Below are positions 1,370-19,664 of a stretch of 64,000 nt of DNA, one piece after another. The notes under the pieces were generated by a model, which searched no databases, was not told the origin of the DNA, and was given only the letters and a program-made list of their open reading frames with translations. A program made the position numbers and the translations under genes. The DNA lies in the NCBI GenBank assembly GCA_051859245.1, contig JBHYGA010000004.1, forward strand, positions 512,001-576,000, given 5' to 3'. The DNA comes from Gemmatimonadaceae bacterium (GTDB taxonomy: Bacteria; Gemmatimonadota; Gemmatimonadetes; Gemmatimonadales; Gemmatimonadaceae). Numbering within the stretch: position 1 is the stretch's first letter; every line of letters begins with the position of its first letter.

Positions 1370-3024
<1,655 letters not shown>

Positions 3025-3162
3025 ATGCGGTCTTTTCGCATCCGGAAAGTGTCCCGCGCTCGGCGAGCAGTTCATCTGCAGCCATCCGTTGCGAGGGTAC
3101 GTTCGGTCATTCATGCTATGCCCACCGCTGCTCGTCCCACACTCTCCGTCGGCGGAGCAAAG

Positions 3163-4488
3163 GTGCCAAAGCACAAGTTGAGGGACGGCCGAAATCTGAT
3201 TAAAGGCCTGGCGGAGCTTGGCTCTGCTCTCGGCTACACAGTGAAGGAAGAGGTTCCGGTGGTCGTCAGACGCACTAGGCCCCCTGCAATCGATATAGCT
3301 TGGTTCCGTGAGGAGGGACAAGATTTTCCACTAATGATCTTCGAGGTTGAGAGTCGCGCAACCAACTCGGCAGCTAATAACGCTGTGAAGGTATTTGGGC
3401 AGCCGAACGAGCGATTCCAGAAGCCTCTCTTCTTCTTTCACTTATTCCTCTCCTCTGGTGGCGAGACATCAAGGCTTGAGACTCTCCGTTTCCAGTTCGG
3501 GTCGCATCACTACCGCACTTACTCCTTAGATCAACGCGACTCAACGCTCTTAGTAACCGATGTCCTGTCACATCATCGCCGCCTTAGCAGACAGCTCGAT
3601 ATTGAAAGGTTGGCGTCGGCACTGAATGGCGACTCTTGGCACGACGTTGAACTCGACGTCGTGCTTAAGCATGCTGAAGCTGAAGGCTTTGACGCGCGTT
3701 TTCTCATCAGGTATTGCGAGCTAGGCAGAAGCATACCGCACTTCCGAGAACACTATCTTCGCCTAGTGGAGGAACTAGGGGCATCGGACCTAGATACGCC
3801 AGCATCGTCGAACTACGACAGTCATATCGGATACTGGTGGAATCAGCCGCTCCACATCGGATTGCTAGCGGTTCACCGACCAGACAAATGCGACTATCTT
3901 AACTCGCTCCAGCACTGGCAGAAAAATTCATCGGGTCTCACGCGAATAGGACCGCACTTCGGTTTGTCGCGCGATTACGATGATTTCCTGCTGGGGATTG
4001 CGCCGGCGTTCCTGGCTCTACTTGCGGCGCTGCTGTCCTCGGTGCCCAATGCTGGTCGCTATGTTGCAGATCTCTACCGCCCATTGCTTGATCACCTGCA
4101 ACAAGCGCCTATGGAAGCATCGTTTGGTCTCGCGCTGTGGCTCCTACAAGTTGCCGCGTCCATGCGGGACGCCGAGCGATACGAGTTCGCTAGGAAGTAC
4201 GTAAATCATCGCGGGGGCGTTTCTGCGAGTCTGATTTACAATCCGCCAAGTCTTGTGCAGTTCTCTGAATTCGATGAGGCGTGGAGCGAGGCAATTAACG
4301 AGCCTTCCGATCCCGTTCCATCGATGGCCGACTATCTGCGACGCTTGCAATTGCAACATTTTGGCGGCCCTACGTCTGACGACCTGCTCACTTCAATCGT
4401 TATGGATGTCCTAACCGATGATAAGTTCCTTCTTGGGTGGGCGCCTCGAGTTCTGCGGGCGCTCCACTCGAGAGGAATTTCAGCATGA
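3163..4488 (+). CDS. Hypothetical protein with N-terminal PD-(D/E)xK-like nuclease motif and helical C-terminal region
   Basis: GTG start behind GGAG; E-x-P...IDIAW...IFEVES resembles a restriction-endonuclease-like core; atypical codon usage. Confidence 0.55.
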   Translation: MPKHKLRDGRNLIKGLAELGSALGYTVKEEVPVVVRRTRPPAIDIAWFREEGQDFPLMIFEVESRATNSAANNAVKVFGQPNERFQKPLFFFHLFLSSGGETSRLETLRFQFGSHHYRTYSLDQRDSTLLVTDVLSHHRRLSRQLDIERLASALNGDSWHDVELDVVLKHAEAEGFDARFLIRYCELGRSIPHFREHYLRLVEELGASDLDTPASSNYDSHIGYWWNQPLHIGLLAVHRPDKCDYLNSLQHWQKNSSGLTRIGPHFGLSRDYDDFLLGIAPAFLALLAALLSSVPNAGRYVADLYRPLLDHLQQAPMEASFGLALWLLQVAASMRDAERYEFARKYVNHRGGVSASLIYNPPSLVQFSEFDEAWSEAINEPSDPVPSMADYLRRLQLQHFGGPTSDDLLTSIVMDVLTDDKFLLGWAPRVLRALHSRGISA

Positions 4489-4596
4489 CGAACGTTCGAG
4501 GCGGCGGGATCTGCGCGGTCCCTCTCAATCTTACGTTGACTGCTTGCATTCGCGCTTGGATCTAGCGTGCACAATCACGAAAGACCCCCGCGGTAT

Positions 4597-5571
4597 TCAT
4601 CTTCTGCACAGTGCGTTGGGAACGTTCGCATCGACAAAAGCTTGGAGTTCGTTCATCACTGGCAGCTGCCGAGCGGATTCTAGCTCCACAACCATTGTTC
4701 CGGCGCAGCACTTGCGAGCGGGTCTCCCTGCAGCGGCTAGCGGCTGTAGGTGGACGGGATGCTCATTTGGAAGCACCGCACAACAGTGCTCAGATAGCTG
4801 CGTACAGGCGATATTTACGTTTGGATTGTGCGCCCTCAAAGCCGTAATCACTTCTGGGCGTGGAGTGCCGAACTTGCCTCGGCCGATCGAGAAAACAACT
4901 GACTTCGGCTGTACCAGTTCGCACACGAGTCTCACAAATTCGTCACCGGAGCTATTCGCTGCGCCGCCGTGGTGAGGGAAGACGAGGATAGGCGCACGAA
5001 AATCAGAGTCGGACGTACGATTGGCGAGAGCCACGGCATCGATGTCGGCGGCAAGGAGGATCGCGGGAACCGAATCAAAGTCAATCCTCACGCTTGCGCT
5101 AAGCGTATTGGTCGTGATCCGCTTTCCATGGCGGTCAAAACTTCCTACGCCCTCCAGAACCAGGTGCGCTGGGGGGGAGACGATGCAAAGCTTCACACGG
5201 CCGAGCGTTAGATCGTCGCGACCTCCACTCGCGAGGCCGACTGCGAGCTTCGCTTGGTTCAAACCAAGTGCAACCTTCAAGGAACTCCACGTCCCTGTGT
5301 CCTTAAAACTGTCCTGATTCACGTGTACACAGCCAACCCGGAAACGGTCAGCACTCAGAACCGCGATGGCGCCACCGATATGATCGTGGTCGGCGTGAGA
5401 CAAATAGATCGCATCAATCTTGTAAATGCCTGCAGCGTCAAGAAACTCGAGAAGAGTGCTTCCAGGCCCAGCATCCACAACAACTAGTCCCTCGTCAGAT
5501 CTTACGACCGCGCAGTTGCCATGCCCAACATCGAGAACGGTGACGCTAGCTCCGTTTGGTTTCGGATTCAT
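4597..5571 (-). CDS. ComEC/Rec2-like MBL-fold metallo-hydrolase (putative nuclease), soluble
   Basis: LDVGHGN, VDAG, SHADHDHIGG, LLAAD, PHHGG motifs; no TM or signal segment; Cys-rich C-terminus; GAGGT RBS. Confidence 0.85.
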   Translation of the reverse strand: MNPKPNGASVTVLDVGHGNCAVVRSDEGLVVVDAGPGSTLLEFLDAAGIYKIDAIYLSHADHDHIGGAIAVLSADRFRVGCVHVNQDSFKDTGTWSSLKVALGLNQAKLAVGLASGGRDDLTLGRVKLCIVSPPAHLVLEGVGSFDRHGKRITTNTLSASVRIDFDSVPAILLAADIDAVALANRTSDSDFRAPILVFPHHGGAANSSGDEFVRLVCELVQPKSVVFSIGRGKFGTPRPEVITALRAHNPNVNIACTQLSEHCCAVLPNEHPVHLQPLAAAGRPARKCCAGTMVVELESARQLPVMNELQAFVDANVPNALCRR

Positions 5572-5576
5572 TATCG

Positions 5577-6248
5577 CTACACCTCGCGCCATTCAGCGAA
5601 GTACAAGTCACTCGATGTCACTGCCCCCAAATTCACTTCAGCAAGTAGGTGGTCAGCTCCACCGAGGATCGCACTCTGTATGTTCGGTGGAAGATCCCGA
5701 AGATGAATGGAAATCAGTTTCTGTGGATCCCATCCCGGCACGACCACCATGCAGTCTTCGCTGCCGCTCACCGAATCATCGAGATCTTCGATGCGAACGA
5801 GCGTACGCCAAGGCCGACGATGCTCAGCCACTCGACCCTCGATCTCAGCGATGCAGGTGTTGATCGCGGCAAGCAGCGTCTCGGGACTGAGCTCCGCTGT
5901 CGGAATCACAACGGGGATGAACTTGCGATGAGGACGCAGATCCTCACTCAGGTCATCGGTCATTCGGGAGCAAAGAATTGCTGGCACTCCTGCCGCATTC
6001 AGGCCTGCCACAATCAAGCCGCCATCTACGGAAGCGTAATTCTTCTTCCGAAGGTGATAGTCGCATAACACGGCTGCGTTAGCGGAGGCACGCTTTCGCA
6101 GGTCGTCAACACCACGTACAGGGGCCTCAACTTCAATAGCAAGCAAATAGCTATCTTTGACGAGCTCTCCGAGAGCATCACGGCTATCTGGTTGATCGTC
6201 AACGATCAGAACCTGTTCGATTGTGTGTCCCTTCAAGGCAAGATTCAC
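5577..6248 (-). CDS. Response-regulator receiver domain + unknown C-terminal beta-rich domain
   Basis: VLIVDD, LCDYHL (phosphoacceptor Asp), ILCS; GTG start 1 nt after the kinase stop, with GGGAG RBS. Confidence 0.8.
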   Translation of the reverse strand: MNLALKGHTIEQVLIVDDQPDSRDALGELVKDSYLLAIEVEAPVRGVDDLRKRASANAAVLCDYHLRKKNYASVDGGLIVAGLNAAGVPAILCSRMTDDLSEDLRPHRKFIPVVIPTAELSPETLLAAINTCIAEIEGRVAEHRRPWRTLVRIEDLDDSVSGSEDCMVVVPGWDPQKLISIHLRDLPPNIQSAILGGADHLLAEVNLGAVTSSDLYFAEWREV

Positions 6249-6249
6249 T

Positions 6250-8310
6250 TTAGGCTCCCATAATCGGCAGCTCGATTCGAAAAGTTGCTCCCCCAAGTTC
6301 CCCTGCGGCTTCAGCGGAGACTTTCCCGCCCAAGTCCTTGACCGTATCTCTGACAATTGTAAGCCCCAATCCGGTACCGCTCGCGCGTGTGGTCTCTCCC
6401 GGAAGCCAAATCGAGCCAAGAGAGATGCCAGTGATGCCCGGGCCGTTGTCCAAGACCTCAATCACGCAGCTTTCGCCTAGTACGTGTGTTCGCAGCTCGA
6501 TAACACGCTCTCCGATGCCTGCCAGCTCAAAAGCATTTACGCAGTTGTTGATCAGGTTCGTAACGAGGGACTCTAACGCGGCCTCCGTTCCTTGATAGTA
6601 CGGAGAAGCGATAGCTAATGTTTGACGAACCTCGACGTCACGCCCCTCGAGGAATGGAGTAAAAGTCTTGACCACTCGGGAAACAACTTCGTGAACATCA
6701 ACCCGTCCGCGTCGACGCTTGTCACGCCGGACTAGACTCAGAGTTGCAGATGCGAGCACGGAAAGTGCGGAAACCGCACGCCGCACAGACTCAACTGGTT
6801 TCTCGAGTATCGATCCGAATCTTTCGCTGAGTGCTTTTTTGCCCCGCCTCTCAATAGTATTGATAGACGCCTCAATAACTTTGAGTGGATTGCCAGCACT
6901 TTCGTGAGCAAAAGTCGCTGCCGTAATACCCGCTGTACTTAGAGTGCGATAGAGCTGCACCTCTTTGTGAAGAGTCTGAATTTCCTTCTTTCGCGCACGA
7001 TCATACCTTTCGAATGCGGCAGAAAATCGCTCGCGTGTACGCGCAGGCGCTTTTTGGATGGCAAAATCGACTGCCTCTTTCGCTTTCGAGCTTCGTGTGG
7101 GGGCCTCAGTGCGTCGTCTAGCTCGTCTCTCCTCCGCGTCTTGCATTCTACATCGCGCCATCCATTCCAAGCAGTCTATGGCAAACCGACGGAGTTCGAG
7201 ATAGTCGGGTCCCTCGATCAGTCCACTTCGGTCGGTCTTTTGCACCAGTCGACCTTGAGTATCGGAAACCACAACTCGACCGATAGAGTTATTCGTCGAA
7301 GGCCGCTCTTCTGGGCTGCGTACTCTGCGAAGATTCATCTCCAACCAATCGTTGGTCGGGCCTCCGTACGGACTAACTCTTAATCCATTCTGATAGAGAT
7401 GCACGCCGCCGAACTCTTTGAGCCAGACTCTGACTTCACTAAGTGTGGACTTTCGTAACTCGAACGAAGCCGATGTTAGAACGAAAGACCAGAGGTCGAA
7501 GCTTGCGTCGGGGCAGCGGTAGAGCTCTCCCTCGCTAGCGGAACTGAGTTCGCTGTGTGCGGCCTCGTAGAGCGGCTTGCCACGAAAGTCCACAACTCGT
7601 GCTCGTGCTATTCCGCCTTCAAGTGTTGCGACAAGGTGATAGTCCGCGTCTCCGAAGTAGCGCTCTGCCACCAGCCGCGAGAACTCGGCGTATTCCGGAG
7701 CTTTGAGTTCCGGACGAAATCCTACGGTCTGGTCGTCAAAAGGATCTGCGAGCAGCACAAGCGCCCTAGCTAGTCGACGAACCTCGTGCGCACCTACGGG
7801 ATTTCGAAGGTTGCAGAGCTCGATGTGAGTCCCGTATCGTGGCGAAACTGCCAGCTGTTGGTGCAGGGGGAGCAGAACATCATCCACGAGTGACGCTTCA
7901 TCGAACTTCTGCCAATCCAGCGCTAAGGAAACCTCGGTTGGACGTCCCGCGCGTGAAACCGACGTCACAATCGCTCGAGTGCCAAGTCGAAGCGCCGCGA
8001 GCCTTCCTAGGCCTTTGTTGCCCGCTGGAACGCGGCCTTTCGTGGTTAGTTGCGAGATCGACTTGCGTGAGCTTCCAAGAACAAGCCAACCGTCGATAAT
8101 GTCGTCAGATGTCATCCCGATGCCATCATCAGAGATGATGATGGATCCACCGGGCTTGAGTGTGTCGCGCAGCTCAATTACGCATCGCGACGCGTCGGCA
8201 TCGTAGGCATTCTTGACCAACTCGAGGACGCCTTGGTCAAGGCTTGGATTAAGCTCCTCACCTAGACGACGCAATATCTCGGTAGAAAAGCGAAAGCGCG
8301 CTTCTTTCAA
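6250..8310 (-). CDS. MORC-type GHKL ATPase fused to a C-terminal histidine kinase
   Basis: ELVKNAYDA, DDGIGM, GNKGLGR (GHKL); then FAHE H-box, NLINN N-box, DNGPGI, GTGLGL; TTG start overlaps the MTase TGA (TTGA) with GGGGAGG RBS. Confidence 0.9.
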   Translation of the reverse strand: MKEARFRFSTEILRRLGEELNPSLDQGVLELVKNAYDADASRCVIELRDTLKPGGSIIISDDGIGMTSDDIIDGWLVLGSSRKSISQLTTKGRVPAGNKGLGRLAALRLGTRAIVTSVSRAGRPTEVSLALDWQKFDEASLVDDVLLPLHQQLAVSPRYGTHIELCNLRNPVGAHEVRRLARALVLLADPFDDQTVGFRPELKAPEYAEFSRLVAERYFGDADYHLVATLEGGIARARVVDFRGKPLYEAAHSELSSASEGELYRCPDASFDLWSFVLTSASFELRKSTLSEVRVWLKEFGGVHLYQNGLRVSPYGGPTNDWLEMNLRRVRSPEERPSTNNSIGRVVVSDTQGRLVQKTDRSGLIEGPDYLELRRFAIDCLEWMARCRMQDAEERRARRRTEAPTRSSKAKEAVDFAIQKAPARTRERFSAAFERYDRARKKEIQTLHKEVQLYRTLSTAGITAATFAHESAGNPLKVIEASINTIERRGKKALSERFGSILEKPVESVRRAVSALSVLASATLSLVRRDKRRRGRVDVHEVVSRVVKTFTPFLEGRDVEVRQTLAIASPYYQGTEAALESLVTNLINNCVNAFELAGIGERVIELRTHVLGESCVIEVLDNGPGITGISLGSIWLPGETTRASGTGLGLTIVRDTVKDLGGKVSAEAAGELGGATFRIELPIMGA

Positions 8311-9602
8311 CGTCTGCCTCCCCAAATTGGGACAGAGCCAAGCGATCCTACGGTGAGGTGCCGACAGCGAATGACTGAGTCTAACCAACGAGTGGTCCGA
8401 GGATCCTTAAGCGTCGTGACCAATCTCCGGCAAGCGCTCAGCGATCGATCGTGCGGAACTACTACCAGCATATGATTCTCAACCGCCACAGGCTGCTCGC
8501 CCTTCACTATGGTGGCGACAGCACGATGAACGTCTCCCGGCCGTGAGGTTCTGCGTACCGCGACAAACGGAGGCTGTATTAGCGTGCCCATAAAGCGCCG
8601 TTTCGAAGCGGGTTGGGTAATTTCCCCCCATCTAGGTGCGCTCTTGGGCGTTAGATAGGGCTGCCACTTTCCACGATGCGGCGCGCGATACTCGACGACT
8701 GATCCCGTGCGAACCCTGTAGAGGTCACTGACTGTCAGCGTTTCGCCTTCTGAACTAGCCCTCACCCAGACCGCACTCGAACTCTCGCCCTGTCCACGGA
8801 TCGCGTGGAGTAGAAATACGTGCACGTCTGTTAACGAATCAAAGAGACCGTATTCTATCGTATCAACTCGGCCGGCAAGCGATTCAAGCTGCGCGCGCCA
8901 CGCTGCGTATCGCGAGCCGCTTCGGAGTACGTCAGGAAGTACGGCTACCATGCTGGTGCCTGCCCGCGCTTTCCTGAAGATAGATTCGGTGAACATAGCA
9001 GCAGAACTGACCTTCCCACGCCCCCACGAACAGTCACCTGGCGCCTCAATGTCGGTGAAGGGCGGATTCAACACGATATGCGTGACGTTGCTAAGATCGG
9101 TCTGTGCAGAAATTCCGTCGCCTCTCCGAATATTTGGAAACACGTCCTTCGGAAGAGCACACGCAGAGTTCACGCCGACACGACTAGCAGCCGCAATCGC
9201 CAGTCGCGCGCGGGCCGCCCCGACAAAAGGCTCATGGAGGTCAGTTCCTCGAAGCTGGTGGCCCCATGTGTTGATCGTGTCAATCAGGCCGCCCGTTGAA
9301 GTCAGCAGGTGACGACTGCACGCAATGAGGAGGTCTCCAGCACCACATGCTGGGTCCAGAATGACAGAGGCCGGGTTCAACTTGCGTTCAAACATCGAAA
9401 CGACGAGCTCCGCGAGAGTTGCACCAGTAAAGAATGCGCCCGCAGCCCTAAGCTCGCGAATCGGTACCAGTCGGCGGAGTTCTCGACCAGCGTGTCCGTC
9501 TAGAGTTGCCTCAATAGCACCTTTGTGAGCGTCGCCGTGCCTCGCAAAAATTTGCTCGGCTAGATGCCACATCTCTTTCGTAGCGGGCCGAAAAGCTTTC
9601 AC
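8307..9602 (-). CDS. N6-adenine DNA methyltransferase (gamma-class motif order) with C-terminal TRD-like region
   Basis: GAFFT (motif X), LDPACGAGDLL (motif I), VLNPPF (motif IV). Confidence 0.9.
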   Translation of the reverse strand: MKAFRPATKEMWHLAEQIFARHGDAHKGAIEATLDGHAGRELRRLVPIRELRAAGAFFTGATLAELVVSMFERKLNPASVILDPACGAGDLLIACSRHLLTSTGGLIDTINTWGHQLRGTDLHEPFVGAARARLAIAAASRVGVNSACALPKDVFPNIRRGDGISAQTDLSNVTHIVLNPPFTDIEAPGDCSWGRGKVSSAAMFTESIFRKARAGTSMVAVLPDVLRSGSRYAAWRAQLESLAGRVDTIEYGLFDSLTDVHVFLLHAIRGQGESSSAVWVRASSEGETLTVSDLYRVRTGSVVEYRAPHRGKWQPYLTPKSAPRWGEITQPASKRRFMGTLIQPPFVAVRRTSRPGDVHRAVATIVKGEQPVAVENHMLVVVPHDRSLSACRRLVTTLKDPRTTRWLDSVIRCRHLTVGSLGSVPIWGGRR

Positions 9603-10288
9603 TTGAGTTTCGCGAGTTGTCGTAGTTCGCTCCTCGCGCCACGTAAATGTGGCGGTCGAAGCGTGATCCGGAAAACTTCGCGAACGGCACTAGCAGCCCG
9701 CCGACTGCGGTATGCATTGATCGCGGGATTTGCGTCGGATCAAACGTCTTGCCCTGCGTCGTTTGGAACCTTGAACAGCTCATCTGGGTCGGGCACAAAC
9801 TTCATGAACGCGACCGATTGCCTCATGCACATAAAATCCACTGCAAGAGAGCAAACGATAAAGACAAATATGCGCCGTAAGCGGGCTCTGCAAAACCCTA
9901 CCACACGCACTCGACCGACTGAAAGCCGCAAAGGATGGCAGGCCGCGACGGCCGAGTGCAAGGCCGGCATCCCATGGATAGGCAAGGCGTCCAATTCATA
10001 TGTCTGGCCCTGGCTATGGGATGCAAACACAACGCAAGCGTGGGGGAAATGTCGGAGATGCAACCTTCAGCCCGACTCGCCACAACTAAATGCCCATTTC
10101 GAACAGAAGTTAGAAATGCGCTCTGTGTTCGCGCCACAACCACAGCCCGATGGTCGCACGCCTTGAGGGCGTTCAACATCGTGGCAAACTCGCAATCACC
10201 GCGGTTCGCCGACCAAGTCACATGCCCGCCCTCACATACGCTGTCATAGTGGGCGGCCGTATCAATTCACGCGTCTTCTCTCGCGCCT

Positions 10289-10548
10289 CACTCTTCGAGC
10301 GCCCAAGGGACGCCGGCCACGGACGCGACGTACCGTCTGCTGCATCGCCCTGCGGCATCAAATCGCGGGGCAACTTCTGCGAATCTCCCGACGCCATCTA
10401 CGCCAACATGACGATCAGCGTGGCGTTGTTGCGCAGGACTTCTGGCACAATCTTGTCGTACGTGTCGCGGTTGGTGTGCATGGTGGTGTTGCTGGAGTTC
10501 CAGTCGAGCGCGCCGGTGCCATTGCTAGGTGCCTTGGCACACACGAAC
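10289..10548 (-). pseudogene. Degenerate 3'-end fragment of the M28 peptidase gene
   Basis: Aligns with about 39907-40166; encodes HTNRDTYDKIVPEVLRNNATLI with a TAG at 10398-10400 in place of Tyr. Confidence 0.9.
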
Positions 10549-10605
10549 GAGCGGCGTGCTTGTTGACGCACAACAACGAATGACCGAACATGACACTCGG
10601 CGGCA

Positions 10606-11148
10606 TCACCGCGAACGAACCCAAGGTTCGTCGCAACTCGCAGTGGGTGTGCCGCGAATGCCGAGTTCCGTGGGTCGAGGCGAGCTCGCGCCTGCGCCAA
10701 CCGTGTACGCAACTCGCCCGCGCGCGTCGGTGAACGATACCGCGTCTCTGAGTGTGACCAGCTGCGATACGGCTTGCTTGCCCACCCGCGCCGGATCGTA
10801 GCGCCACCTCTTCAGAGTTTCGAGCAGGAGCGTCGCATACTCCTCCGATGTTGTGCGCATTACTTTCGCTGAACCCTTTCGCACCTCACCCGTGGAGTCG
10901 ACTACGAACTCGACGTCCACGCGCACGCAGCGCAGCCCGGACGGCGGCTGGAAGTTTGGCGTGGAAGACTTCTTCAGTTTGGCAGGTTTGTCTACGGCGC
11001 ACTGGCGATATACAGCCGCAGTGCCAAAGCGAAGCGTGTCGGTGACAGGTTCGCAGACCGCTGATGTATCAGCAGATTGGGCGCGACCAGGTGTAGCGGT
11101 CACGATTGCAGCGACGAGTGCCGTGAACAGGTGTCGAGTGCGAAGCAT
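10606..11148 (-). CDS. Secreted protein with TonB C-terminal-like domain
   Basis: Signal peptide; VDVEFVVDSTGEV...WRYDPARVG..VSQLV pattern. Confidence 0.7.
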   Translation of the reverse strand: MLRTRHLFTALVAAIVTATPGRAQSADTSAVCEPVTDTLRFGTAAVYRQCAVDKPAKLKKSSTPNFQPPSGLRCVRVDVEFVVDSTGEVRKGSAKVMRTTSEEYATLLLETLKRWRYDPARVGKQAVSQLVTLRDAVSFTDARGRVAYTVGAGASSPRPTELGIRGTPTASCDEPWVRSR

Positions 11149-11181
11149 ATCTGAGTTACCGTGTGCAGAGTGAATCCGAAT

Positions 11182-11340
11182 CTATCGAACCGCACCAGCG
11201 GCTCGCTTAGTGATCGGCAGAGCCAGGCCGTGCGCGCGATCATCTGAATCAAGTGCAATAACCGTCAGGCGCGTGGAGTCGATCGCGATCCAGTTGAAGA
11301 GAAAGCGCCAGTTGCTTGCGCCGGGTCGCTGGTCGGGCCA
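11182..11340 (-). pseudogene. Possible C-terminal remnant of a beta-propeller lipoprotein gene
   Basis: IAIDSTRLTVIALDSDDRAHGLALPI resembles the C-termini of the window's propeller paralogs; no start before the ahcY repeat. Confidence 0.3.
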
Positions 11341-11349
11341 CCGCACTCC

Positions 11350-11427
11350 GTATTGATGAGGTCGGTAGCGCAAGGTGTGATGAAGGCAGCGCGGTTGCCA
11401 TGTGACGGCAGCGCTGTATTCTTTGCG
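11350..11427 (+). repeat. Direct repeat of ahcY stop + downstream hairpin (island right boundary)
   Basis: 71/78 identity with 2947-3024. Confidence 0.9.
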
Positions 11428-11789
11428 CGCAATGCAGTTTTTCTTCGAGAAGCTGAGCATGCTCAGAGGAAAAGGTGCGATGACACGTCACTTCGCATTC
11501 GCGGCCCGCTCGACATGAATCCGTCTTTGAGGATCGTCACACGGTCTGCGCGGTTGCAGCTAGGCGGCTTCTTGTGCTTTGGTTCAATGTTTGCAGCAGA
11601 AACGCTTCGCACTGCGCACTTTTGCTTGACGGGATAGATGATTGGTGCGAATGTTTTTCGGTTTCGTCGCCTCAGCAGTGACGCGGAATATGCAGCGACA
11701 ACGTCCGACGCAAACCGCCACCTGCGGTGATCGCCTGCTGTGCAGATACTCGTTAGCATGACTTCTCGAATCGCTCGCTTCAGAGGGAT

Positions 11790-13644: not shown

Positions 13645-14742
13645 ATGACTGACGTCCACTTCGCGAGACGAAGTCTTGCCCTTGTTGCACTGCTTGTCTT
13701 CGCTGCATGTGGGACCACCAACAGTGATACCGATTCCGAAGCGCCGCGCTTGGTCGAGCTTGAGGAGGCGCTCGCTGCGGGAACGGTGCTGCGGCTGGGC
13801 GCAGCGGACGGTCCGCAATCCATTGGCGCGGTGATGGCCGCGCGGATTACGCCGGATGGGTCACGGATCGTTGTGCTCGATCGCGAGCCGCCATATCTGA
13901 AAGTGTTTCGGCGTGACGGCACTCCGGAGGGGCAGTACGTCGCGCGCGGAAGCGGTCCGCAAGAGATGTCTGAAGTGTCCACCATGGCCGTTGATAACGA
14001 ACGAGCCTTTATCGTTGGTCCGTATGCACTGCTGGTGACGACACTGGATGGGTCAGTCAGCGAGAGAGTTGTGCCGGACTTTCCGCTGTTCGATATCGGC
14101 ACGGACTGCGCCGGACGCGTGATCGGCTACGGGCCGCGCGGCGATCCTGAACCACAGTTCCTGCACCAGCTCGCCGTTGATTCCACCGTGGCGGTGACTC
14201 GCTCAACGCTGCAGGGTCAGCGGACAGAACGCATGGCGTGGGGATTCGGACGATCGAGTGTGGTGCGTGCCTCGGCCGGCAGCGTGATCAACCACCGTGA
14301 AGAGGGCTTCAGTACGCCTGTGTTTCTGTCTTGCGACGGCGACACCTCGGCGCGGGGCTGGTCGTGGGCAGCGGCCGAGTTCCCTTCGAGACGGGACGCG
14401 CAGCGAGGACAGGAGTTGCGCGACGGTTCTACCGCTCAACTCACGTTTGACGCGACCGTGCCGATTAATGTGGGGGCAGCCGAGCTCGCCAACGGACGGC
14501 TTTTGTGGCTTGAGCAGCGGCTGATGTTCTCGGGCAAGAGGGAGATGGACGTGCGGTTGGACTGGTTTCTGGCGGATTCTGCGGGGCTGCGGCGTGGGTA
14601 CACATCCCAGTCCTATGTGCTCCAGGATGTCGGCGCTGGTTTGATGTTGATTTCGACGGACGAGCCGTGGTCACAGGTGTTGTTGGTCCCCGCTGACGCG
14701 GTGGAGCAGCTGCTTGGCCGAGGTTCGTGGAAGGCACGCTGA
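13645..14742 (+). CDS. 6-bladed beta-propeller-type lipoprotein
   Basis: Lipobox FAAC; RGSGPQEM variant of the GxGPGEF motif. Confidence 0.7.
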   Translation: MTDVHFARRSLALVALLVFAACGTTNSDTDSEAPRLVELEEALAAGTVLRLGAADGPQSIGAVMAARITPDGSRIVVLDREPPYLKVFRRDGTPEGQYVARGSGPQEMSEVSTMAVDNERAFIVGPYALLVTTLDGSVSERVVPDFPLFDIGTDCAGRVIGYGPRGDPEPQFLHQLAVDSTVAVTRSTLQGQRTERMAWGFGRSSVVRASAGSVINHREEGFSTPVFLSCDGDTSARGWSWAAAEFPSRRDAQRGQELRDGSTAQLTFDATVPINVGAAELANGRLLWLEQRLMFSGKREMDVRLDWFLADSAGLRRGYTSQSYVLQDVGAGLMLISTDEPWSQVLLVPADAVEQLLGRGSWKAR

Positions 14743-14902
14743 CCCGTCGTTTTTGGTGTTTGTTCGGATATTTGCTATATTTATGGAATCGGCCAGTTGC
14801 GGGCATTCGACTCGCCGCACCCCCACCTGCCAGGCCGCTCCTTGTAGGGGCGTGCTCACTACGCCGTCAATAACTACTCCCGTCGCCAGACTCAGCGCAC
14901 GC

Positions 14903-15919
14903 ATGAACGACCTGATTCTGTACACCACCGACGATGGGCGCAGTCAGATCAGGCTGCGGGCCAAAGACCAAACCGTTTGGCTAACGCAGCGCGAAATGGC
15001 GGAGCTGTTCAATGTCAGTTCCGACAACGTCGGCGTGCATCTCAAGAACATCTTCGAGGACGGCGAGCTAAATCGGGCGGCAACTACCGAGGAATCCTCG
15101 GTAGTTCAAACCGAAGGCAGCCGCGAGGTGCAACGTCCAGTCACGCTCTACAACCTCGACGCCATTCTCGCGGTCGGCTACCGCGTGCGTTCGCCGCGCG
15201 GTGTGCAGTTCCGTCGCTGGGCCTCAGTCATCCTCAAGGAGTTCCTGACCAAAGGCTTCGTGATGGACGACGAACGCTTGAAGAATCCGGATGGCCGTCC
15301 GGATTTCTTCGACGAGATGCTGGAGCGCATCCGGGATATACGCGCCTCGGAAAAGCGTTTCTATCAGAAAGTGCGCGATCTCTTTGCGCTATCCATCGAA
15401 TACGACAAGACCGACTCCGCTACACAGCAGTTCTTCGCGACGGTGCAAAATCTGTTGATCTTCGCAGTGACGCAAAAAACGGCGGTTGAACTCATTACCG
15501 CTCGTGCTAATCCCGACGATCCGCACTTCGGTCTGCTGGCGTGGAAGGGCGACAAGGTGCGCAAGGCCGACATTGTCGTCGCGAAGAATTACCTCACCGA
15601 AGACGAGATCGATACGCTCAACCGGTTGGTGGTCATCTTCCTCGAAACCGCCGAGCTGCGCGCCAAGAGCAAACAGGAAACGCGCATGGCGTTCTGGAAG
15701 CAGAACGTAGATCAGATCATCAGCTCGAACGGATTTCCGCTGCTCACGCACGCGGGATCTGTCAGTCACGAACAAATAGAAGCGCGCACAGGCGAGTTAT
15801 ATCTCGCGTTCGATCAGCAGCGCAAAACTCTCGAGGCGCAGAAAGCTGATGAGCAAGATGCAGCGGACCTGGAAGCGCTGGAGTCCACCATCAAGCGGCG
15901 TACGAAGCAACTACGCTAA
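14903..15919 (+). CDS. rhuM: RhuM-family virulence/DNA-binding protein
   Basis: TVWLTQ..MAELF, YNLDAILAVGYRVRS.RG.QFR.WA, RIRDIRASEKRFYQK, AKNYL motifs. Confidence 0.9.
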   Translation: MNDLILYTTDDGRSQIRLRAKDQTVWLTQREMAELFNVSSDNVGVHLKNIFEDGELNRAATTEESSVVQTEGSREVQRPVTLYNLDAILAVGYRVRSPRGVQFRRWASVILKEFLTKGFVMDDERLKNPDGRPDFFDEMLERIRDIRASEKRFYQKVRDLFALSIEYDKTDSATQQFFATVQNLLIFAVTQKTAVELITARANPDDPHFGLLAWKGDKVRKADIVVAKNYLTEDEIDTLNRLVVIFLETAELRAKSKQETRMAFWKQNVDQIISSNGFPLLTHAGSVSHEQIEARTGELYLAFDQQRKTLEAQKADEQDAADLEALESTIKRRTKQLR

Positions 15920-16744: not shown

Positions 16745-18847
16745 CTACCGACCTGGCCGCTGGTCGAAGCAAGTTGCTCCTGAAACCACACTGATTTCCT
16801 GCGGCACAAATGCGATCCCCGATGCCGCGTCTGTTACCTTGAGCAGAATCGTAACGGCGCCGGAGGCAGGGGTTCCGAGGCTTAGCGAGGAACCGGTGCT
16901 CTGCAGCATGGAGTTCACATACCACTCGTATGCATAGGGCTCGACTCCATTTGCGGCTCCGGCAAAATAGTTGCAACTAGAGTTCGGAGGAACTTCCGTG
17001 GCGCCGGATATTGTTGCGGACATGGGAGGCGGAGGTGGTGGATCGCCAGGATACCCCCTCTCTGTGGGATAACATTGCTGCGGAGAGGAGCAGACCAGTA
17101 CTGACATCTTTCGTGGATCGTCGGTGCCGAGCACCTGGTCAAGCACGGACATTTCCACCGTCGAGCGATACGGCATGTTGTCGAATGCCGGTAGAAACCG
17201 TATCGATCTCCTCGACTGCCAATACGTGTTGCCGGAGCCATCAGAGATGGCTCCTTCCACCGCATTCGTGACAATCTGCTCTGGCTTGCCGACCCATTGG
17301 GCAGCATAGGAACCGGAGCCGCCAAAACCCGCTGGTGGCGAGTTGATCACAGCGGATGCCCGCACAAAGGGATAGTAGTCCTGCGAGTTTATGGTGTTCG
17401 TGTAGTGGACTAATAAGCCTTTGAGCTGCGACACGCATGGACCACCGACTGCTGCGGAGACGTTGACCATTGCCATGCGCCATGAGGGTGCTCCCCCGCA
17501 CTGCGCACCGGTCGAAGTTTTCATGATTTGATCCATCACCTGCCGAGCGCTGAACGATGGGAAACGATGCCGGACGAGCGCAGCGACTCCACCGATGAAG
17601 CCGGTGGACGCAGATGATCCGTTTATGCTAAGAAGACCGGGCACGAGTCCCACGGTCGCGAGCGCGGTGTAGGCGACAACGCCGGATTTGCTGCCATAGT
17701 CGTACATGTTGGACGGCCGGCTCCCGTCACTGTTTGCCCCACTCACTGCCAGCACCTCCTCCTTCGAGGCTGGGAACACTGCGGTGTTGATTTGAGGACA
17801 GTTTCCCCCAATCGGACACGTTCCCGCTGCACCGACAAACACCACATCGCGTTCATAATGGTGATAGTCAATCACATCGCTAAGGAACTCAGAGAAGTTG
17901 GTCCCGGGTACGAATCCGAAGGCCATTATAACTACGCCTGCCCCGGTGCTGGCCGCGGTATCAACTGCTACTCCTGAAATAAATCCATTGGGTGAAGTGA
18001 CGGCGTTGCCCTGTCCGACTGAAATGAGGCTCGCACCGTACGCAACGCCAACACTTCGTGTGCCATTCATCGGACCAACTGCGAGAGATGCGATACGAGT
18101 GCCGTGAGAGCAACTCGGATAGCCATCTTGGACCACTTCAAGGGTGCGTGGGATTGGTCCAGATGAGAACCCGGAGCCAAACTCGCCGTCTCCCCAACCC
18201 AAGCCGGTGTCAACCATTCCCACCTTTACGCCTTGGCCAGTCGCGAGCTTCCAGCCATTCGGGACGTTCATCCCGTCAGCATCGTAAGTGGAGGCTACCA
18301 GATCCCCACTCGGCAGTAGCAGGGTCGGATCAGAAAACTGCGAATCACCACCACTGCTACCGGACTCACAACCGTCTCCGCTCGCCAGCGAGATCCGAAA
18401 GTAGGTGGGTTCTACGTAGTCGACGAACGGAAGCTGGCGGAGCCGTGCGAGGGCGCCGCGGCTGCCCAACTTGATACGGACAACAGGATATCGCAGCGAG
18501 TCAATCGCAAGAATCTTTACTTCCCGTTCTTGCCTTACTGCCGAGAGCGCGAGCTTCCATCGCTGCTGCGAAATTGCAATTCGCCCACGCACCATGCCGC
18601 GTGCCGTACCGACCTCCTTTAGTCCAACAATAACGCTACTGTCGATCTGAGAGCTCAAAATCCAGATGATGGAGTCCGATAAACTCCTCCGGTCGCCTTG
18701 GCCTGAGATTTGAGCGACTTGCTGGCCATCAAGGACGTTAGCGCTAAGCTGGGGGTCTGCAGAGGTAGTGGTATCGGGGCGACATGCGGACAGCAAACAG
18801 AACAGGAACAGTACCCACACTTGCGACGCACGTAGAAGCCAATTCAT
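16745..18847 (-). CDS. S8 (subtilisin-like) serine peptidase lipoprotein with C-terminal PKD/Ig-like domain
   Basis: LSAC lipobox; VGMVDTG (Asp), SHGT (His), AAG, NGSSAS (Ser); poly-Pro linker. Confidence 0.8.
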   Translation of the reverse strand: MNWLLRASQVWVLFLFCLLSACRPDTTTSADPQLSANVLDGQQVAQISGQGDRRSLSDSIIWILSSQIDSSVIVGLKEVGTARGMVRGRIAISQQRWKLALSAVRQEREVKILAIDSLRYPVVRIKLGSRGALARLRQLPFVDYVEPTYFRISLASGDGCESGSSGGDSQFSDPTLLLPSGDLVASTYDADGMNVPNGWKLATGQGVKVGMVDTGLGWGDGEFGSGFSSGPIPRTLEVVQDGYPSCSHGTRIASLAVGPMNGTRSVGVAYGASLISVGQGNAVTSPNGFISGVAVDTAASTGAGVVIMAFGFVPGTNFSEFLSDVIDYHHYERDVVFVGAAGTCPIGGNCPQINTAVFPASKEEVLAVSGANSDGSRPSNMYDYGSKSGVVAYTALATVGLVPGLLSINGSSASTGFIGGVAALVRHRFPSFSARQVMDQIMKTSTGAQCGGAPSWRMAMVNVSAAVGGPCVSQLKGLLVHYTNTINSQDYYPFVRASAVINSPPAGFGGSGSYAAQWVGKPEQIVTNAVEGAISDGSGNTYWQSRRSIRFLPAFDNMPYRSTVEMSVLDQVLGTDDPRKMSVLVCSSPQQCYPTERGYPGDPPPPPPMSATISGATEVPPNSSCNYFAGAANGVEPYAYEWYVNSMLQSTGSSLSLGTPASGAVTILLKVTDAASGIAFVPQEISVVSGATCFDQRPGR

Positions 18848-19187
18848 CAGTTTCTCGTAGAAACCTGTATGTGATTTACATCTGACAGTTCGAGCGGAGT
18901 TCCTTCATGTAGCGTCGCGCGGATTACTCACTCGCTGCACTTGGAAAAAAGCTCTTTGTATATCGCCGCTAGAACAACAGGCCGCTATTAGCCCGCGGGG
19001 GTATTGGTACGATCGGGCGGCCTGTGAACCGTTTGCCGCCGCCTCCATATGACACATCACAAACTGGTGCCTCATTTTGTTGCCTGCTACGTCAAGAGCG
19101 AGCGAGCACGGGGGTGATCCGAATAGTCGTCCTCTTGCTCTGTGTCAAAGAATGAGCACCGCGGCAAGTGCAGCAGCTGCCATCCTA

Positions 19188-19664
19188 GCGACGGTGCAGA
19201 ACCTGTTGATCTTCGCCGTGACGCAAAAAACGGCGGCTGAACTCATTACCGCGCGTGCCAATCCCGACGATCCGCACTTCGGTCTGCTGGCGTGGAAAGG
19301 CGACAAGGTGCGCAAGACGGACATTGTCGTCGCAAAGAACTACCTCACCGAAGACGAGATCGATACGCTGAACCGATTGGTGGTCATCTTCCTAGAAACC
19401 GCCGAGCTGCGCGCCAAGAGCAAACAGGAAACGCGTATGGCGTTCTGGAAGCAGAACGTGGATCAGATCATCAGCTCGAACGGATTCCCGCTACTCTCGA
19501 ACGCGGGTTCGGTCAGTCACGAACAAATGGAAGCGCGCACGGGCGAGTTATATCTCGCGTTTGATAAGCAGCGCAAACCACTCGAGGCGCAGAAAGCAAA
19601 TGCGCTAGACGCAGCCGACCTCGAAGCGCTGGAGTCCACTATCAAGCGACGTATCAAGCAATGA
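19188..19664 (+). pseudogene. 5'-truncated second copy of the rhuM 3' half
   Basis: Aligns with 15437-15910, differences mostly at third codon positions; N-terminal half is missing. Confidence 0.9.

Follow-up and report, generated by a model that had tools for sequence, protein, structure and literature searches.

What is a DNA methyltransferase gene doing at the head of a compact operon for a sensor kinase, a response regulator and a soluble hydrolase, with no classical restriction endonuclease beside it? The question is raised by a locus in a 64,000-nucleotide stretch of contig JBHYGA010000004.1 from a Gemmatimonadaceae bacterium (assembly GCA_051859245.1, positions 512,001 to 576,000 of the forward strand), the whole of which is referred to here as the window. 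We propose that the four genes, designated A to D, constitute a mobile restriction-modification (R-M)-like immune cassette, in which a His-Asp phosphorelay separates the recognition of DNA from its cleavage and a metallo-beta-lactamase (MBL) hydrolase is controlled post-translationally through the receiver protein, and we regard this as probable. The cassette is real and widespread; its function is predicted. The genes are as follows.

Gene A, 9602-8307, minus strand: 431 amino acids, GTG start; predicted gamma-class N6-adenine DNA methyltransferase, with motif I (DPACGAGDLL, residues 83-92) preceding motif IV (NPPF).
Gene B, 8310-6250, minus strand: 686 amino acids, TTG start; predicted soluble sensor kinase, with a GHL ATPase at residues 1 to about 400 and the histidine kinase dimerization/phosphotransfer (DHp) and catalytic/ATP-binding (CA) domains at about 441-685.
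Gene C, 6248-5577, minus strand: 223 amino acids, GTG start; putative receiver-adaptor protein, with a receiver (REC) domain at residues 10-139, approximately, and a C-terminal domain at 141-223 (nucleotides 5828-5580).
Gene D, 5571-4597, minus strand: 324 amino acids, ATG start (alternative ATG at 5592); predicted soluble ComEC-type MBL hydrolase, the presumed nuclease effector.

The four genes occupy 9602-4597 of the minus strand in the order A-B-C-D and are translationally coupled, at the positions given by the original prediction, which had been made from the DNA letters. The stop codon of A (TGA, 8309-8307) shares bases with the start codon of B (TTG, 8310-8308) in a TTGA overlap, the stop codon of B (TAA, 6252-6250) is followed by one nucleotide and the GTG of C, and that of C (TAG, 5579-5577) by five nucleotides and the ATG of D. 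Purine-rich stretches (GGAG/GAGG) lie 6-10 nucleotides 5' of the starts of B, C and D. The tight spacing of four same-strand genes and the ribosome-binding-site-like stretch before each downstream gene, both claimed in that prediction, are thus read directly from the sequence, and its domain calls for all four proteins (methyltransferase, ATPase-kinase, receiver, and MBL with an HxDxDH motif) were upheld by Pfam, by profile comparisons and by structural models. It had also stated that the operon lacks a classical restriction endonuclease; no such family was found in Pfam, PADLOC and NCBIfam scans of 4597-9602, and no HNH domain occurs in this interval. The defence models scanned were the PADLOC-DB 2.0.0 hidden Markov models, applied protein by protein. 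A sigma-70 promoter scan of 4300-10300 returned no sites against a shuffle mean of 2.3, a result that is uninformative, as the host promoter type may differ. No terminator was found on the operon strand in the same interval, and no Rfam family in the window.

That the genes belong together is evident from their distribution. The 120 homologues of B that were listed are full-length (684-713 amino acids) and, apart from the window's own sequence, 53-59% identical. At E 1e-30 or below, the family of C has 358 clusters in a set of 1.84 billion representatives at 50% identity; of the 150 members listed, almost all measure 213-241 amino acids. The A-B-C-D order, the genes overlapping or lying a few bases apart, was found at 10 of 13 species-representative genome loci; at the other three, A is inverted after D, the contig ends 168 bp past D, or the contig ends inside B. 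Among 80 metagenome loci, C follows B in all 72 with room for it and D follows C in 64 of 64, while an A-type methylase lies adjacent, upstream and on the same strand in 60 of the 64 testable loci. Because of this linkage the B-C-D trio looks obligate and the adenine methylase nearly so. The four exceptions with respect to the methylase consist of two loci with A divergent, one with an Eco57I-type N6-adenine methylase and one in which none was seen. The Eco57I-type enzyme (locus L038, 2431-4188, minus strand) is unrelated to A and divergently encoded in place of the usual methylase; judged from its sequence, this is a non-orthologous replacement that keeps the role of an adenine methylase.

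Plasmids carry the cassette as well. Four annotated plasmids had a full-length match to the kinase, and the two that were inspected, from Burkholderia and Hymenobacter, carry all four genes, which bear the NCBI names methylase, ATP-binding protein or sensor kinase, response regulator or hypothetical protein, and MBL-fold hydrolase. By record titles, the cassette order recurs across about nine phyla, the groups named being Planctomycetota, Acidobacteriota, Myxococcota/delta-proteobacteria, Armatimonadota, Verrucomicrobiota, Actinomycetota, Betaproteobacteria and Bacteroidota. Conserved synteny, when checked, therefore gave co-occurrence of the four genes in genomes, on plasmids and in 52 of the 54 metagenome loci with room for four, and the arrangement exceeds chance. 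Two copies are decayed, with an in-frame stop in B of L006 (6986-9058) and a frameshift splitting D of L003 (9737-10719); these could be real pseudogenes or assembly errors. A search of 50,697 phage records gave no match covering 80% or more of B, and one of IMG/VR yielded no relative.

Gene A matched the Pfam N6_Mtase family (1e-6, above the cut-off) and, among the PADLOC models, mad2 (4.4e-12) plus type I/II methyltransferase models. The NPPF of motif IV is encoded by codons 9068-9057. An alignment of 11 orthologues revealed that G87, G89, D90, N179, P180 and P181 are invariant, and that the C-terminal domain (RRTSRP...ENH...RCRHLTV) is also conserved; the latter is presumed to be the target-recognition part. 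The GTG start is backed by the N-termini of the homologues, which also begin MKAF. Membership of the MADS system was considered and rejected: against the MAD2 model NF047738 the product of A scored 23 bits, the cut-off being 720, and no mad model matched B, C or D.

Gene B specifies two ATPase modules of the GHKL type, detected by Pfam as HATPase_c_3 (residues 25-137, 1.5e-19) and HATPase_c (residues 575-682, 8e-22). The first comprises a GHKL domain with the motifs E30, N34, D61xGxG65 and K99-GLG, followed by a second, or transducer, domain. The second belongs to a histidine kinase with an H-box (FAHESAGNP; H469, codon 6906-6904), an N box (TNLINN), a G1 box (DNGPGI) and a G2 box (GTGLGL). 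Ten orthologues of B have a mean column identity of 69%, and the residues invariant among them include those of the Bergerat fold (E30, N34, D61, G63, G65, K99, G100 and G102) and those of the kinase (H469-E470, N585/N589, D621xGxG625 and G645xGxG649). Residues 8-187 matched NCBIfam NF050001, the N-terminus of the BbrUII/HgiDII restriction enzymes (1.6e-19), and the protein also matched the NCBIfam models of the AtoS/ZraS kinases. In PADLOC the REase_II models scored 4.6e-11, and beyond REase_II and TmtA no model matched. A profile built from the ten orthologues aligned with ZraS in the PDB (1.4e-15 over residues 447-685), the DHp and CA domains aligning also to FixL and HK853.

The N-terminal part of B had originally been called a MORC ATPase. 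The AlphaFold2 model of residues 1-440 has a mean predicted local distance difference test (pLDDT) score of 69, with residues 277-365 below 50. Its best fold match was MORC2 (Z 16.6, rmsd 4.8, 269 aligned residues over 7-397), with MORC3 (Z 16.2), TRAP1 (15.4) and MutL (15.4) counted as ties; Foldseek placed TRAP1 first, and the Z lead of MORC2/3 over TRAP1 and MutL is within 1.2. Since MORC2/3, TRAP1/Hsp90 and MutL tie in this way (Z 16.6-15.4), MORC-like is a fair description of the class, that of the GHL ATPases, and an assignment to the MORC family itself would be too specific.

Pfam recognized the receiver domain of C below threshold (Response_reg, E 0.02, 15.5 bits against a cut-off of 30.2). 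The AlphaFold2 model (pLDDT 90.5) has the receiver fold, the best structural match giving Z 13.3 and rmsd 2.5 over 119 aligned residues, and Foldseek likewise returned REC domains. The residues of interest are D17, D18, the phospho-acceptor D63 (codon 6062-6060) and S94. The D17-D18 pair and D63 are conserved, D18 and D63 being invariant in 52 family members, and position 94 is T or S in 12 of 12 members aligned. In the model, the C-terminal domain has the order beta1-beta2-beta3-alpha-beta4-beta5, which fits an OB-like (oligonucleotide/oligosaccharide-binding) barrel. No helix-turn-helix (HTH) family was matched among the 52 family members, and none is present in the model of the C-terminal domain. 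The ESM Atlas held no usable match for this domain, comparison of C with the non-MBL parts of ComEC gave no similarity (probability 0.05), and no fused forms of C were found at E 1e-5 or below among longer proteins, which is weak evidence.

Gene D encodes an MBL protein with the motif H59-A-D61-H-D63-H64 (HADHDH, codons 5397-5380), together with D176 and H200-H201. Its C-terminal tail is rich in cysteine, with C256, C263, H274, C288, C289 and C322 invariant in an alignment of 11 orthologues. Matches were obtained to Pfam Lactamase_B (8e-14), to PADLOC LmuA (2.6e-10) and to TIGR00361 ComEC (2.4e-9), with D covering only positions 441-514 and 619-683 of the ComEC models. The best PDB relatives of the D profile are solved ComEC MBL domains (4e-16). 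A full-length ComEC is encoded elsewhere in the same genome (contig 5), and its whole MBL domain aligned with D by hhalign (probability 98.2, E 4e-14, 226 columns). The genome contains a further ComEC-like MBL match, a 492-amino acid open frame at G000:C7:114278-115261 (L113).

How might C and D work together? Three prediction runs for the complex of the two gave ipSAE scores of 0.85, 0.86 and 0.85, against 0.34 for the highest-scoring of three controls. This level was attained by 116 of 157 solved complexes and by 2 of 215 mismatched pairs, a benchmark that holds here only approximately, since our own alignments were the input. At least 97% of the contacts agreed between runs, and the partner pLDDT was 87. 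On the side of C, the predicted interface is formed by the C-terminal domain only (residues 141-152, 169-176, 199-210 and 223), within which P171, W173, N206 and G208 are invariant or nearly so in the 52 family members. On the side of D it comprises residues 36-42, 62-75, 93-104 and 279-285, beside the H59/D61/D63/H64 metal site. The prediction supports binding of C to D and, given its score relative to the controls, suggests that the nuclease is gated post-translationally via C.

The cassette is horizontally mobile and accessory. Among 41 related genomes, of which 30 are 90% complete or better, B was found only in its own, and none of 14 genomes from the same genus has it. The G+C content of the cassette is 0.52-0.58, against 0.60-0.68 at the start of the window. 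A repeat search and pairwise alignment revealed two direct repeats that bound an 8.4-kb segment containing the cassette, together with one further open reading frame (ORF).

Left 81-nucleotide direct repeat, 2944-3024: begins within the final codons of the S-adenosylhomocysteine hydrolase gene (1400-2953).
Right 81-nucleotide direct repeat, 11347-11427: 90% identical to the left copy.
ORF of up to 512 amino acids, 2950-4488, plus strand: convergent with the cassette, inside the repeat-bounded segment.

In the closest relative (L030, 2283-12199; 93% identity over the S-adenosylhomocysteine hydrolase gene) there is a single junction at this site, past which lie sequence resembling 11350-11756 of the window, about 8.4 kb of other cargo with DUF3800, RES and DUF7019 genes, and then a homologue of window 10283-11289. 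Since the nearest relative holds different cargo there, the site is a variable hotspot. No integrase was seen in the repeat-bounded segment, and as no tRNA was found it is not a tRNA-targeting island. The 512-amino acid ORF had no Pfam, PADLOC or PDB sequence match, and its nearest Atlas cluster (score 0.93) is annotated as a hypothetical protein. It was considered as the missing restriction enzyme and rejected: by eye, D...EVESR recalls a PD-(D/E)xK motif, and no tool supports this. Because it is absent from all other loci fetched, we do not count it as part of the system.

At 9 of 15 loci, a count made without a control, the cassette has defence or mobile-element genes at a distance of up to approximately 7 kb. 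The neighbours seen were MzaBCD, HmaC, Cas1-like, HKD+Snf2, SIR2-like and PDC-S28 genes, JAB/E1-E2 genes with an MBL and a patatin, integrases with ParDE and, in the window, RhuM/PDC-S05. Matches of ABC transporters to mad3/mad8/AriA and of a UvrD protein to GajB were dropped as likely housekeeping genes. In L005 (114-5135, Acidipila) an MzaB-MzaC-MzaD-like set (HATPase_c_3, Z1, DUF4420) stands directly upstream of the cassette, so that two GHKL-containing systems adjoin. A patatin-like phospholipase gene lies beside the cassette in three unrelated loci (L006 11230-12774, L015 4948-6252 and L038 8993-10837), and could be either a defence gene in its own right or an accessory present now and then. 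In the window itself, a full RhuM-family gene (14714-15919, plus strand; PADLOC PDC-S05, 3.5e-145) and a shorter copy with the C-terminal half only (19077-19664, plus strand) flank the gene of a 700-amino acid subtilase (16745-18847), and the neighbourhood beyond the cassette also looks accessory.

What, then, would these proteins do together? In the mechanism that we envisage, A would mark host DNA. B would sense through its N-terminal GHL ATPase, the part homologous to the ATPase head of BbrUII/HgiDII, probably reading DNA that lacks the mark and possibly doing so jointly with A, whose gene overlaps its own. Sensing would lead to autophosphorylation of H469 and transfer of the phosphate to D63 of C, the residues concerned being conserved. 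The C-terminal domain of C would sit on D beside the HxDxDH metal site, as in the predicted complex, and since C has no DNA-binding output and is predicted to dock at that site, its phosphorylation would act after translation, either turning on the nuclease or releasing it. D, with its ComEC-type catalytic domain, would then degrade the invading, or all, DNA. We favour a relay because the catalytic residues are conserved, the four-gene linkage is near-obligate, the distribution is patchy and mobile and a receiver-MBL complex is predicted. The original prediction of an R-M-like His-Asp relay between a methylase-linked sensor and an MBL nuclease fits the residues, the linkage, the mobility and the C-D model; the steps by which the relay would operate are ones that we infer, and our confidence in each is lower than in the defence system as a whole. 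More tentatively still, the response regulator could lack a transcriptional output and serve as a dedicated adaptor, whose possibly OB-like C-terminal domain clamps a ComEC-type DNase at its metal site, with phosphorylation of its aspartate by a DNA-sensing, MORC-like kinase directly licensing DNA degradation.

Several observations weigh against the scheme. Residues 300-365, the most conserved part of B, were modelled at a pLDDT below 50. C is without the conserved beta5 lysine, the aligned position being an invariant I111-P112, and because of this and of a Pfam score below the cut-off its competence in phosphotransfer is not assured. The C-D prediction is a measure of model confidence, not of binding. 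A DNase function is only presumed for ComEC-type MBL domains, and hydrolysis by other MBL enzymes extends to many substrates. No methylase is seen in the available DNA of one lineage (L011, L052), and the count of defence neighbours stands without a background rate. Finally, there is Ambrosia of Pseudomonas aeruginosa, a validated anti-phage system of five genes, AbrR, AbrA, AbrB, AbrC and AbrD, which specify, in this order, an XRE regulator, an N6 methylase, a kinase, a receiver with a winged HTH (wHTH) domain and a type IV HNH nuclease, all of them needed (preprint 10.1101/2025.09.30.679545). There, methylation by AbrA did not protect phages, contrary to a simple self-mark logic (10.1101/2025.09.30.679545).

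The main rival to self-marking is accordingly the inverted logic proposed for Ambrosia, in which A or its product would be the trigger or target, or a DNA-recognition subunit, and the host would be safe while the relay is off. In the preprint, phages grown on AbrA alone stayed sensitive, and its authors propose that the nuclease may act on the AbrA modification (10.1101/2025.09.30.679545). The overlap of A with B (TTGA), and likewise that of the C5 methylase and kinase genes in L023, a locus of the HEF_HK type (4872-5945 / 5945-8920), suggest a physical methylase-kinase unit, whatever the methylation chemistry. A ComEC-type MBL protein would not be expected to read a methylation mark itself. 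Our data would fit either logic. The unrelated, divergent N6-adenine methylase of L038, however, fits a generic marking role better than that of a sensor subunit; moreover, the Ambrosia nuclease is a type IV HNH enzyme, which D is not. We consider the inverted logic unlikely, and transcriptional control, pure addiction and a role outside conflict less likely again.

If the relay controlled transcription, as in the working model for Ambrosia, phosphorylated C would induce expression of the methylase and the nuclease; in Ambrosia, infection induces the reporters, and a wHTH is part of AbrC (10.1101/2025.09.30.679545). The output domain of C, in contrast, consists of five strands and one helix, and none of the 52 family members matches an HTH family. 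No HTH-family match was obtained for the five small ORFs upstream of A in the window, an XRE-type match upstream of the cassette was seen in one of 11 other loci (beside a Gp49-like gene), and C is predicted to bind D directly. Furthermore, because all four genes are coupled in one operon, the relay proteins and their supposed targets would be made together, and control of this sort strikes us as improbable. Hardly better are the prospects of a selfish addiction module, that is an R-M-like post-segregational killer that stabilises a mobile element and has no real anti-phage role. It would suit the mobile, patchy distribution, the plasmid copies beside ParDE and integrases and the decayed copies (the stop in B of L006 and the frameshift in D of L003), but an elaborate ATP-dependent sensor and relay would be hard to explain by it, and classical R-M systems do both jobs, so that defence is not excluded by addiction. 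We would give very little credence to the remaining alternative, a cytoplasmic two-component pathway in which a ComEC-like hydrolase serves to regulate epigenetic state, repair or the uptake of DNA. The closest solved relatives of D are indeed ComEC competence proteins; the genome, however, has its own full-length ComEC, and the cassette was absent from all 40 relatives that were searched, has passed between phyla (identity about 55%) and sits in a variable hotspot, which are not features of housekeeping pathways.

Should the phosphorelay reading be true, a widespread cassette would show an immune system that inserts a signalling relay between the recognition and the cutting of DNA, and such a relay would allow thresholding, amplification or abortive outcomes that are beyond the reach of a fused restriction enzyme. 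If C is moreover an adaptor that clamps D, the system would amount to a post-translational phospho-switch restriction enzyme, with a coupling unlike that in the transcriptional model for Ambrosia. The four compact, soluble proteins would also offer a model of how MORC/MutL-type ATPases, the relatives of eukaryotic chromatin and immunity ATPases, read the state of DNA, of how a receiver gates an enzyme in trans, and of whether ComEC-type MBL domains are true DNases.

How new is such a system? In the original prediction the four-gene set was not recognised as an experimentally described, named system. As a claim of novelty this is too strong, since a kinase, receiver and methylase architecture akin to this one was set out computationally in 2021 (PMC8011034), and a validated system, Ambrosia, in a 2025 preprint (10.1101/2025.09.30.679545). 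Literature searches aimed at the four-gene combination turned up no description of the MBL version. The cassette is not categorically new; it differs in its nuclease, in the output of its receiver and in the absence of an XRE gene.

The 2021 study (Bellieny-Rabelo et al. 2021, PMC8011034) is a computational one that connected two-component-like pairs of HEF_HK (PF19191) and Response_reg_2 (PF19192) proteins with R-M genes and with paraMORC ATPases. Proteins of HATPase_c_3 + HEF_HK + HATPase_c composition are placed there beside Response_reg_2 proteins and C5 methylases, and MBL has no occurrences in the accessible portion of the text (PMC8011034). The present cassette is alike in its HATPase_c_3 + DHp + HATPase_c kinase, the receiver-like gene downstream and the DNA methylase gene upstream. 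Comparison of B with a HEF_HK-type kinase encoded after a C5 methylase gave three collinear segments (E 1e-13, 6e-11 and 1e-12), and on these alignments B is distantly homologous to it. The HEF_HK kinases, however, are about 990 amino acids long, their receivers about 530-550, and they occur with C5 methylases and Vsr/HNH, whereas B has 686 amino acids and C 223. Membership of the two families was rejected: B had no PF19191 match at E 0.1 or below, PF19192 matched none of the 52 members of the C family at E 10 or below, C included, and both models did detect true members from the same phylum, PF19191 picking up the kinases of L023 and L024 at 4e-27. Candidates for PF19192 were absent from the window's own genome and present in 6 of 301 genomes of the phylum. 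L023 (4872-10970) and L024 (7520-13254) are true HEF_HK/Response_reg_2 loci from genomes of the same class, each with a C5 methylase, a kinase of 991-998 amino acids and a receiver of 531-546, the long C-terminus of which may hold a fused effector; L023 contains Vsr in addition.

With the paraMORC ATPases of R-M systems (Iyer, Abhiman, Aravind 2008, PMC2292703) and with BbrUII/HgiDII (NF050001), the cassette shares an N-terminal HATPase_c_3-type GHKL head in an R-M context. In those systems the ATPase is fused to the nuclease or lies beside it, whereas B joins it to a histidine kinase and the nuclease gene comes two genes later, behind that of a receiver. Classical type II R-M systems have the cognate restriction enzyme beside the methylase; here there is none, and B matches only the BbrUII-type ATPase head. 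In Detocs, a defensive two-component system, a kinase reportedly senses infection and a receiver-linked effector executes the response, which is alike in principle, but that system is said to do without a methylase, to rely on another type of sensor and to use as its effector an ATP nucleosidase that is fused to the receiver. ComEC/Rec2 resembles D in having an MBL domain with the same HxDxDH variant of motif 2; it has in addition membrane competence and OB domains, whereas D, at 324 amino acids, has neither and carries a Cys-rich tail.

The closest parallel in composition is Ambrosia. In both, an N6-adenine methylase, a histidine kinase/HATPase, a receiver and a nuclease occur together and no classical cognate restriction enzyme is present. 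The receiver aspartate is essential in Ambrosia, where D60A abolishes defence and expression is induced on infection (10.1101/2025.09.30.679545), and the equivalent D63 is invariant in C. The kinases AbrB and B are alike at the domain level only. Three defining features of Ambrosia are missing from the cassette: it uses a type IV HNH nuclease (AbrD) where we find a ComEC-type MBL, its AbrC has a wHTH output where C ends in a domain of five strands and one helix for which docking on the nuclease is predicted, and it includes a HipB-like XRE gene (AbrR), which has no counterpart among the five small ORFs upstream of A. It has five genes against the four of the cassette and is reported to be gammaproteobacterial, with 76% in Pseudomonadales (10.1101/2025.09.30.679545), whereas the family of the cassette occurs outside the Gammaproteobacteria. 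By analogy of described parts, the cassette may be called a putative relative of Ambrosia, with the same principle and three of five kinds of part. If this is true, the newly reported principle of Ambrosia would reach beyond Pseudomonas into many phyla and would act there through another effector.

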